The notes beneath the pieces are model-generated. The model was not told the DNA's origin. It did not search any database and saw only the letters and a list, made by a program, of their open reading frames with translations. A stretch of DNA of 64,000 nucleotides from Parachlamydiales bacterium (GTDB taxonomy: Bacteria > Chlamydiota > Chlamydiia > Chlamydiales > JAJFMK01), in the NCBI GenBank assembly GCA_963765145.1, contig CAVXVG010000018.1, positions 1 to 64,000 of the forward strand, given 5' to 3'. Made by a program: the position numbers and the translations under genes. Shown piece after piece: positions 61,395 to 61,555 of the stretch (position 1 is the first letter of the stretch; every line of letters starts with the position of its first letter).

Positions 61395-61555
61395 TCGAAA
61401 TAAGGTTAAGACGCTTTGGAGTTGACGCTAATAAGACGTCGTGTAGCACATTGTCTTACCTTGTTTCTTTTGGAAAGTATGTTGGGGCTGAAGATCAGCT
61501 AATAAGGCCGAAATCTTCAATAAAAAGGACCCCGGAGAGAACTATGACCGAGTTA
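61395..61555 (+). ncRNA. Predicted bridge/seek RNA of the IS (boundaries approximate)
   Basis: Two stem-internal-loop modules whose loops match the target (TTTGGAGT, TAGCAC) and the donor junction (AGTATGT, AGAGAAC). Confidence 0.82.

Follow-up and report, generated by a model that had tools for sequence, protein, structure and literature searches.

In the 64,000-nucleotide window of a Parachlamydiales genome analyzed here, a stretch that starts 65 bases 3' of the open reading frame of a 366-residue recombinase likely encodes a two-part bridge RNA, which would join the circular form of a mobile element and a hairpin site for recombination; we put the probability of this reading at about 85%. 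The element has the anatomy of an insertion sequence of the IS110 family, IS1111 type, stands in five full copies at the same site and carries four stretches that match the site and its own ends, and in relatives these stretches change jointly with the flanks and ends. From the five same-site insertions and the four stretches that match the site and its own ends, the element is likely to produce an RNA that guides its enzyme. The RNA-guided mechanism and the class have already been described (Durrant 2024, Siddiquee 2024), and the element is a new, well-supported example of them.

Counted with one core, the element measures 1,611 bp (window positions 60087-61697), with non-coding ends of 139 bp on the left and 369 bp on the right, the longer end lying downstream of the gene. 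Its parts, with the remnants of the repeat that it interrupts, are as follows.

60006-60084, no strand assigned: left part of an interrupted hairpin repeat of about 100 bp (REPIN-like), whose rejoined flanks align to an intact copy
60085-60086, plus strand: left core dinucleotide AC (GT on the minus strand), at the same junction in all full copies
60087-60092, plus strand: left terminal extension ATACTG, read by the putative left donor guide
60093-60104, plus strand: left sub-terminal inverted repeat TAATTGCGCTTC, matching the right repeat at 11 of 12 positions
60126-60226, plus strand: leader hairpin with predicted pairing over the ribosome-binding site (GGGCTGTTCT...AGAACAGCCC), fold -43.6 kcal/mol, without a shuffle control
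60226-61326, plus strand: recombinase open reading frame, 366 amino acids, IS110-family DEDD, with domains PF01548 and PF02371
61680-61691, minus strand: right sub-terminal inverted repeat, 12 bp, 11 letters matching the left
61692-61697, plus strand: right terminal extension GAGA and right core AC, from the reading of the junction
61698-61712, no strand assigned: rest of the interrupted hairpin repeat, from the reading of the flank

The recombinase scores 239.5 bits against the NCBIfam model of IS110 RNA-guided transposases (NF033542, cut-off 140). Its residues D8, E55, D94, D97 and S261 align with the catalytic residues of IS621 (alignment to 8wt6), whose roles are given in the accessible part of PMC11208158, and are conserved among homologs. 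These residues and the family domains, a short core within a specific target and ends free of terminal inverted repeats place the element in the IS110 family. The IS1111 group is set out in the accessible parts of PMC11187229 and PMC11208160 by its sub-terminal inverted repeats, a downstream non-coding region and a guide order in which the complement of the top strand comes first; here we find 12-bp sub-terminal repeats (the range is 7-17 bp), the longer end downstream and the top-strand complement first. The left junction reads TTTAGC-AC-ATACTG (core 60085-86) and the right one GAGA-AC-TCCAAA (core 61696-97). The extensions, 6 bp on the left and 4 bp on the right plus the 2-bp core, are asymmetric and leave 12 letters between the repeats in the predicted circle. 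The leader hairpin is a possible translational brake, and the leaders of homologs have, by eye, similar pairing arms with changed letters. The element sits between convergent genes for a 794-residue autotransporter (57566-59950) and a 382-residue protein with a Ser/Thr kinase domain (61769-62917), neither of which is interrupted. A chlamydial host is likely, as the genome encodes a histone-like Hc1 protein (above the cut-off of a model that also matches 1 of 14 controls) and a cysteine-rich OmcB-type protein; searches for three other markers found nothing, and two of these, chlamydia-specific Pfam families, gave no match in any control either.

The five full copies, one on contig C18, one on C27 and three on C29, differ at 0-1 positions in 1,612 bp: three are identical, one has a single base change and one a frame-shifting insertion of one base. 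Both junctions are identical in 5/5 copies, with the same AC core. These near-identical copies point to probable recent movement. A solo right end of 36 bp, still attached to the repeat within a repeat mosaic (G000:C21:174121-174171), is the remnant of a sixth insertion. The copy on C27 (L020, G000:C27:238111) is preceded on the left by no more than some 14 bases of the repeat, which suggests a deletion or rearrangement next to it. In sequencing run X1, one 180-base contig (depth 2) holds the last 18 letters of the element and 18 letters of the repeat and runs on into the flank that borders an empty repeat in the genome (C29:242021-242151); this one short contig hints at an occupied/empty difference between populations. 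From copy identity and this one empty/filled site we infer that the element is probably active. Eight low-depth sequencing runs contained no circle junction, the single RNA run, whose cover was 60150-60353 only, contained no RNA over the guides (61391-61550), and none of the 13 sequencing runs listed reached half of the query words.

The site itself is an extragenic repeat. The rejoined flanks of the element restore an intact copy like that at about 23141-23243, and the genome holds 156 loci of this hairpin repeat of about 100 bp, with 0/156 midpoints inside an open reading frame of at least 150 amino acids. Together the two target guides spell a 12-mer that the genome contains 178 times (0.37 expected), 136 times inside the 156 loci; judged by eye, most of the remaining 42 belong to related mosaics that have this arm too. 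The motif of the arm matches 218 times in this genome and 4 times in a single congeneric one, and the other 59 of the 61 genomes searched gave no match, so the hairpin is a local repeat and not common to the order. Like REPINs and REP/BIME mosaics, it is an extragenic doublet of about 100 bp in more than 150 copies. Unlike REPINs, it does not itself flank a Y1 transposase gene (0/6 such genes have the hairpin within 1.2 kb), although companion modules flank three of them. These three genes (L107, L110 and G000:C28:46907-47080) carry inverted companion modules on their flanks, like REP-associated transposases, and the modules occur in the same mosaics as the hairpin; a further Y1 gene, L108, has inverted flanks of its own.

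Downstream of the gene, the following features make up the predicted RNA.

61391-61550, plus strand: predicted bridge/seek RNA, given as the span of the covariance model and not as the RNA ends
61397-61467, plus strand: target-binding hairpin (outer stem, internal loop, inner stem), z -3.59, with 10/13 helix pairs compensatory
61415-61422, plus strand: left target guide TTTGGAGT, from its match to the flank and from covariation
61444-61451, plus strand: right target guide TAGCAC (61444-49) followed by a handshake-type AT, which is found in 36/38 parsed rows
61474-61482, plus strand: left donor guide AAAGTATGT, matching 8 of 9 letters of the donor ACAGTAT-GT
61484-61533, plus strand: donor-part inner stem (GGGGC...GACCCC), paired throughout (100%) in 37 sequences and compensatory at 3/5 pairs, topped by a variable apical hairpin
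61536-61544, plus strand: right donor guide AGAGAAC (61536-42) followed by a handshake-type TA, from its match to the end

An initial annotation had laid out the four guides, two long stem arms (61397-61412 and 61453-61467) and the inner stems GACG/CGTC, GGGG/CCCC and TGAAGAT/ATCTTCA; the guides and arms agree letter for letter with the sequence, and the inner stems are present in our folds. Its reading that the guides match the target TTTGGA-GT-GCTA and the donor AGTAT-GT-TCTCT also stands, in that the junctions, read directly on the minus strand, give both. TTTGGAGT, the complement of the top strand, precedes TAGCAC, and TAGCAC together with its AT is identical to the left junction TAGCACAT. 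In dinucleotide shuffles of the non-coding end, all four guides recurred in 0/20,000 and three guides in 4; the product of the single-guide shuffle frequencies is 1.2e-6, with order and position ignored.

The two halves of the RNA differ in structure. None of 200 shuffles folds as well as the target-binding hairpin. For the donor half, 54/200 do (z -0.42), so this half is without a folding signal of its own. Over 150 nt the fold scores z -2.13, and over a broader 201 nt it scores z -0.77. With L070 left out of the 38 fully parsed rows, 37 RNAs were aligned; the alignment contains 18 consensus pairs in three helices, of which 13 are compensatory, with 97% of cells paired; 0/500 shuffles reach this level, and slid controls are 31-42% paired. 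The two guide loops proposed earlier thus survive in part: the target loop is closed by stems, but for the donor part RNAalifold found no closing helix in the 37-RNA alignment. A similar division applies to the proposal that each guide ends on the core. It holds in this element, but among 46 parsed rows the last two letters of the left donor guide, those at the core, are GT in only 3 (this element included) and otherwise chiefly AG (11), AA (10), GG (8), AT (6) or GA (6), so the stretch read by this guide probably spans five to seven letters and leaves out the core. The accessible part of PMC11208158 likewise reports for IS621 that the last base of the left donor guide pairs within the RNA. 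A search of Rfam yielded no family for the RNA and 7 weak matches, all on the target hairpin upstream. The letters GCTAATAAG stand at 61427-61435 and 61498-61506, that is, in both apical loops; as a family motif they were rejected, being absent from every homolog locus.

Relatives of the element, 42-50% identical in protein, were taken from the best 80 of 327 related loci of a metagenome scan (28/64 parts of the collection), with a few from 61 genomes. The analyzed set comprises 54 loci at no less than 41% identity, including this element, after two copies of the element and one duplicate contig were dropped. A single-protein scan of genome contigs returned only 5 distant matches, at 26-32%. 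Each covariation test is limited to rows with both partners parsed, because many loci are short contigs, and conservation of the core in the parsed rows is partly built in, because the parser was anchored on the core letters. Guides and flanks change together. The left target guide matches the right flank at 126/145 letters over 32 pairs, 29 of them unique (permutation mean 57.3), and the right target guide matches the left flank at 109/138 over 27 pairs, 23 unique (mean 44.3), with the three letters next to the core at 23/23 each. In permutations, which ignore relatedness, 0/20,000 reach the observed matches in either test, and the same is true of the left donor guide. A covariance model of the RNA found matches in 17/151 genomes of the order. 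Among the 22 loci of this set, 21 were parsed, and the RNAs of five are identical or almost identical to earlier ones (L088, L021). In these loci the left target guide matches at 49/55 letters (11 unique pairs, mean 19.1, 0/20,000), the right target guide at 18/20 (5 pairs, 303/20,000) and the left donor guide at 21/25 (5 pairs, 155/20,000). The original proposal of a bridge or seek RNA of an IS1111-type element, with guides for the repeat target and the junction, is borne out by the five same-site insertions, the stem covariation and this guide-flank covariation.

It is on the choice between bridge and seek RNA that the 2024 papers, in their accessible parts, disagree: is it the target alone, or the donor too, that IS1111-type RNAs guide? 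If they seek only, the first hairpin (about 61395-61470) would be the working guide, the protein would recognize the ends through the sub-terminal inverted repeats, and the donor matches would be dispensable or would serve a minor long form. The structural results lean this way, as only the target-binding hairpin folds better than chance and the donor part has no conserved closing stem. So does ISEc11, for which the accessible part of PMC11187229 reports that a short, 82-nt target-matching RNA sufficed for movement and outperformed the long form in moving a mini-element. We nevertheless consider it improbable here, as the donor guides follow the ends. The variable letters of the left donor guide match the left end at 33/39 over 34 pairs, 13 unique (mean 16.6), or at 37 with G-U wobble, and it follows this end through repeated changes (L050 versus L046, L049 versus L042). 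In most rows the right donor guide shares the letters AGAGA with the right end, and where it varies (AAAGA in L026 and L028, AAGGA in L029) the elements' own ends change identically, so that it follows the right end in three variants; the permutation test for this guide is weak (849/20,000, with 4 unique pairs, one a mis-parse). Several separate branches of a 38-protein tree each show a joint change of donor guide and end (L050 versus L046/L052/L057, L049 versus L042/L033/L040, L029 versus L027). A dispensable segment would not stay matched to the ends, and because donor guides change in step with element ends on separate branches we favor a bridge RNA.

With a bridge RNA, and by analogy with IS621 and ISEc11, recombination could proceed as follows. 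First, the element would excise as a circle. Second, its joined ends would form a sigma-70-type promoter. Third, the transcript would be trimmed to an RNA of about 160 nt and bound by the recombinase. Fourth, the first hairpin would open the target TTTGGA-GT-GCTA on both strands, and the second part would read the junction ACAGTAT-GT-TCTCT. Finally, composite DEDD/serine sites would cut and swap strands at the GT core. Target and donor would both be read opposite to the gene orientation, which is the guide order reported for IS1111 elements. The handshake-type dinucleotides of this element form 0 pairs before and 3 after strand exchange, which would favor insertion. Over 27 loci the counts are 26 before versus 78 after, driven by the invariant AT; the donor-side letters track the target in 18/48 cases, which is not above chance (permutation mean 14.2, 2,257/20,000).

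The promoter of the second step is predicted from two boxes.

60086-60091, plus strand: predicted -10 box CATACT, which would form part of a promoter on circularization
61673-61678, plus strand: predicted -35 box TTGCCT; many homologs have TTGAC-type boxes here

Together these boxes carry 8 of 12 consensus letters. Joined ends score at least 9/12 in 17/32 elements, and linear junctions do so in 4/26 (with the natural left flank) and 1/29; a linear promoter scan returned 2 sites versus 2.5 expected. The left donor guide thus reads the same letters, 60086-91, that form the predicted -10 box, which raises the question whether the donor-matching segments merely shut off the junction promoter, the RNA complex repressing its own transcription with no role in strand exchange. 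This seems very unlikely to us: the right donor guide and both handshake-type dinucleotides show the geometry of IS621, which repression would not need, and 10/32 elements have their best -10 box five letters deeper inside, with the guide still matching the end. Hardly credible at all is that the matches arose by chance or are left over from a local duplication, with the element inactive or the hairpin targeted by shape alone; the guides have only 6-8 letters and hairpin targets can add a structural determinant (ISPpu10, accessible part of bioRxiv 10.64898/2026.03.19.712850), but the shuffle tests, the covariation over 23 distinct left target guides, the intact catalytic residues and the near-identical copies speak against it, and guide-flank covariation largely refutes it.

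Among the known systems closest to the element described here are ISEc11, ISPa11, ISKpn4 and ISPst6, which in the accessible part of PMC11187229 likewise have a downstream non-coding region, sub-terminal repeats of 11-13 bp and asymmetric extensions; ISPa11 also targets an extragenic palindrome. Donor matches, which covary with the ends here, do not figure in that part of the paper, where all matches described are to the target. The spacing of the repeats in the circle is 6 + 2 + 4 = 12 letters here versus 7 + 3 or 6 + 3 there, and the protein has 366 residues versus 330-350. The nearest named relative among plasmid matches is ISMno22, at 40% protein identity. It shares a row of the tree table of Durrant 2024, in its accessible part, with ISAzs32, an element predicted to have a bridge RNA that carries guides for both target and donor. 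Our covariance model finds a homologous RNA behind ISMno22 (E 1.9e-4), whose right end also reads ATCAGAGA before the core. Its core, however, is AG (CT in bridge orientation, by eye), in contrast to AC (GT) in the clade of the element, and the 32 rows of this clade form a branch separate from ISMno22/ISAzs32 (support 100/99).

With IS621 and ISCro4/IS622, as described in the accessible parts of PMC11208160, PMC11208158, PMC13626964 and bioRxiv 10.1101/2025.05.14.653916, the element shares four guides ending at a dinucleotide core, handshake-type dinucleotides (AU against donor AT, as PMC13626964 gives it for IS621; here the AT after TAGCAC equals the donor letters), a DEDD + serine site and insertion into repeated extragenic palindromes. 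Those systems differ in encoding the RNA upstream of the gene, in having CT as the core and in placing the donor guides inside a closed internal loop. Their proteins are only distantly similar (E 4e-14 and 1e-13, with chiefly the C-terminal part aligned). The initial annotation had set the GT core apart from the CT of IS621, but IS621 also recombines GT cores (accessible part of PMC11208158), so the GT core is a variant and no surprise. The unclosed donor part separates the element from the IS621 type only, because Durrant 2024, in its accessible part, notes multi-loop donor regions in many IS1111 RNAs. By the features tested, the element belongs to the IS110 family, IS1111 type, and would work like a bridge recombinase, with an RNA not of the IS621 layout. 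As a cause of the GT core we considered the Asp that replaces Asn84 of IS621 and dropped it, the alignment being gapped and poor there and the row of the CT-core ISAzs32/ISMno22 also being acidic. The right-end motifs of the clade were not found in the 6 readable supplements of PMC11208160, and a literature search outside ISfinder and subscription journals found no paper on the element or on a chlamydial bridge RNA.

The same hairpin has been entered a second time. Contig C25 carries one copy of a distant IS110-family element (L148, G000:C25:31092-32618; 362 amino acids, 27% identical) in the hairpin arm that also holds the first element, shifted by one base and in opposite orientation. Its core is AG (CT in bridge orientation), and its sub-terminal repeats measure 12 bp. 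Downstream are four guide-like segments (32281, 32310, 32353 and 32388) in the same order, which match target and junction, with single frequencies in shuffles of 0.12, 0.06, 0.02 and 0.02; the region has a two-hairpin fold with z -1.51. Two distant RNA-guided elements one base apart in one hairpin would amount to convergent use of a harmless landing site. A broader proposal can be offered only tentatively: the clade may be a natively GT-core, IS1111-type sub-family of bridge recombinases, with donor guides in an open unclosed arm and a left donor guide that ignores the core, in which natural compensatory changes would show RNA donor guides to be needed (bridge rather than seek-only), and which would be independent of the CT-core IS621 and ISCro4, as the two elements sharing one hairpin suggest.

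The element adds a fully readable, apparently recently mobile and probably RNA-guided recombinase from a likely chlamydial host. Its relatives supply a ready list of natural guide-target pairs, and the covariation names the exact donor-guide letters to mutate. A natively GT-core enzyme could widen the options for genome editing beside the CT-core IS621 and ISCro4, though both already accept GT.

The relatives also vary in what they aim at. The target guides of L088, L125 and L138 read GGCCTT-GT-TGCG; this is the mosaics' companion motif, with 137 near-matches in the present genome, so that within one repeat system different modules serve as targets for different relatives. Eleven others (L027, L046, L050, L056, L059, L060, L064, L066, L067, L068 and L117), on at least three branches, have nearly the same target, TATTAG-AC-CTCTTG, which looks to us like the end of another mobile element. 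The RNA of L025 (G053) lacks the entire target hairpin and keeps the donor part, and L117, from the same genome, has target guides unlike those of the main family.
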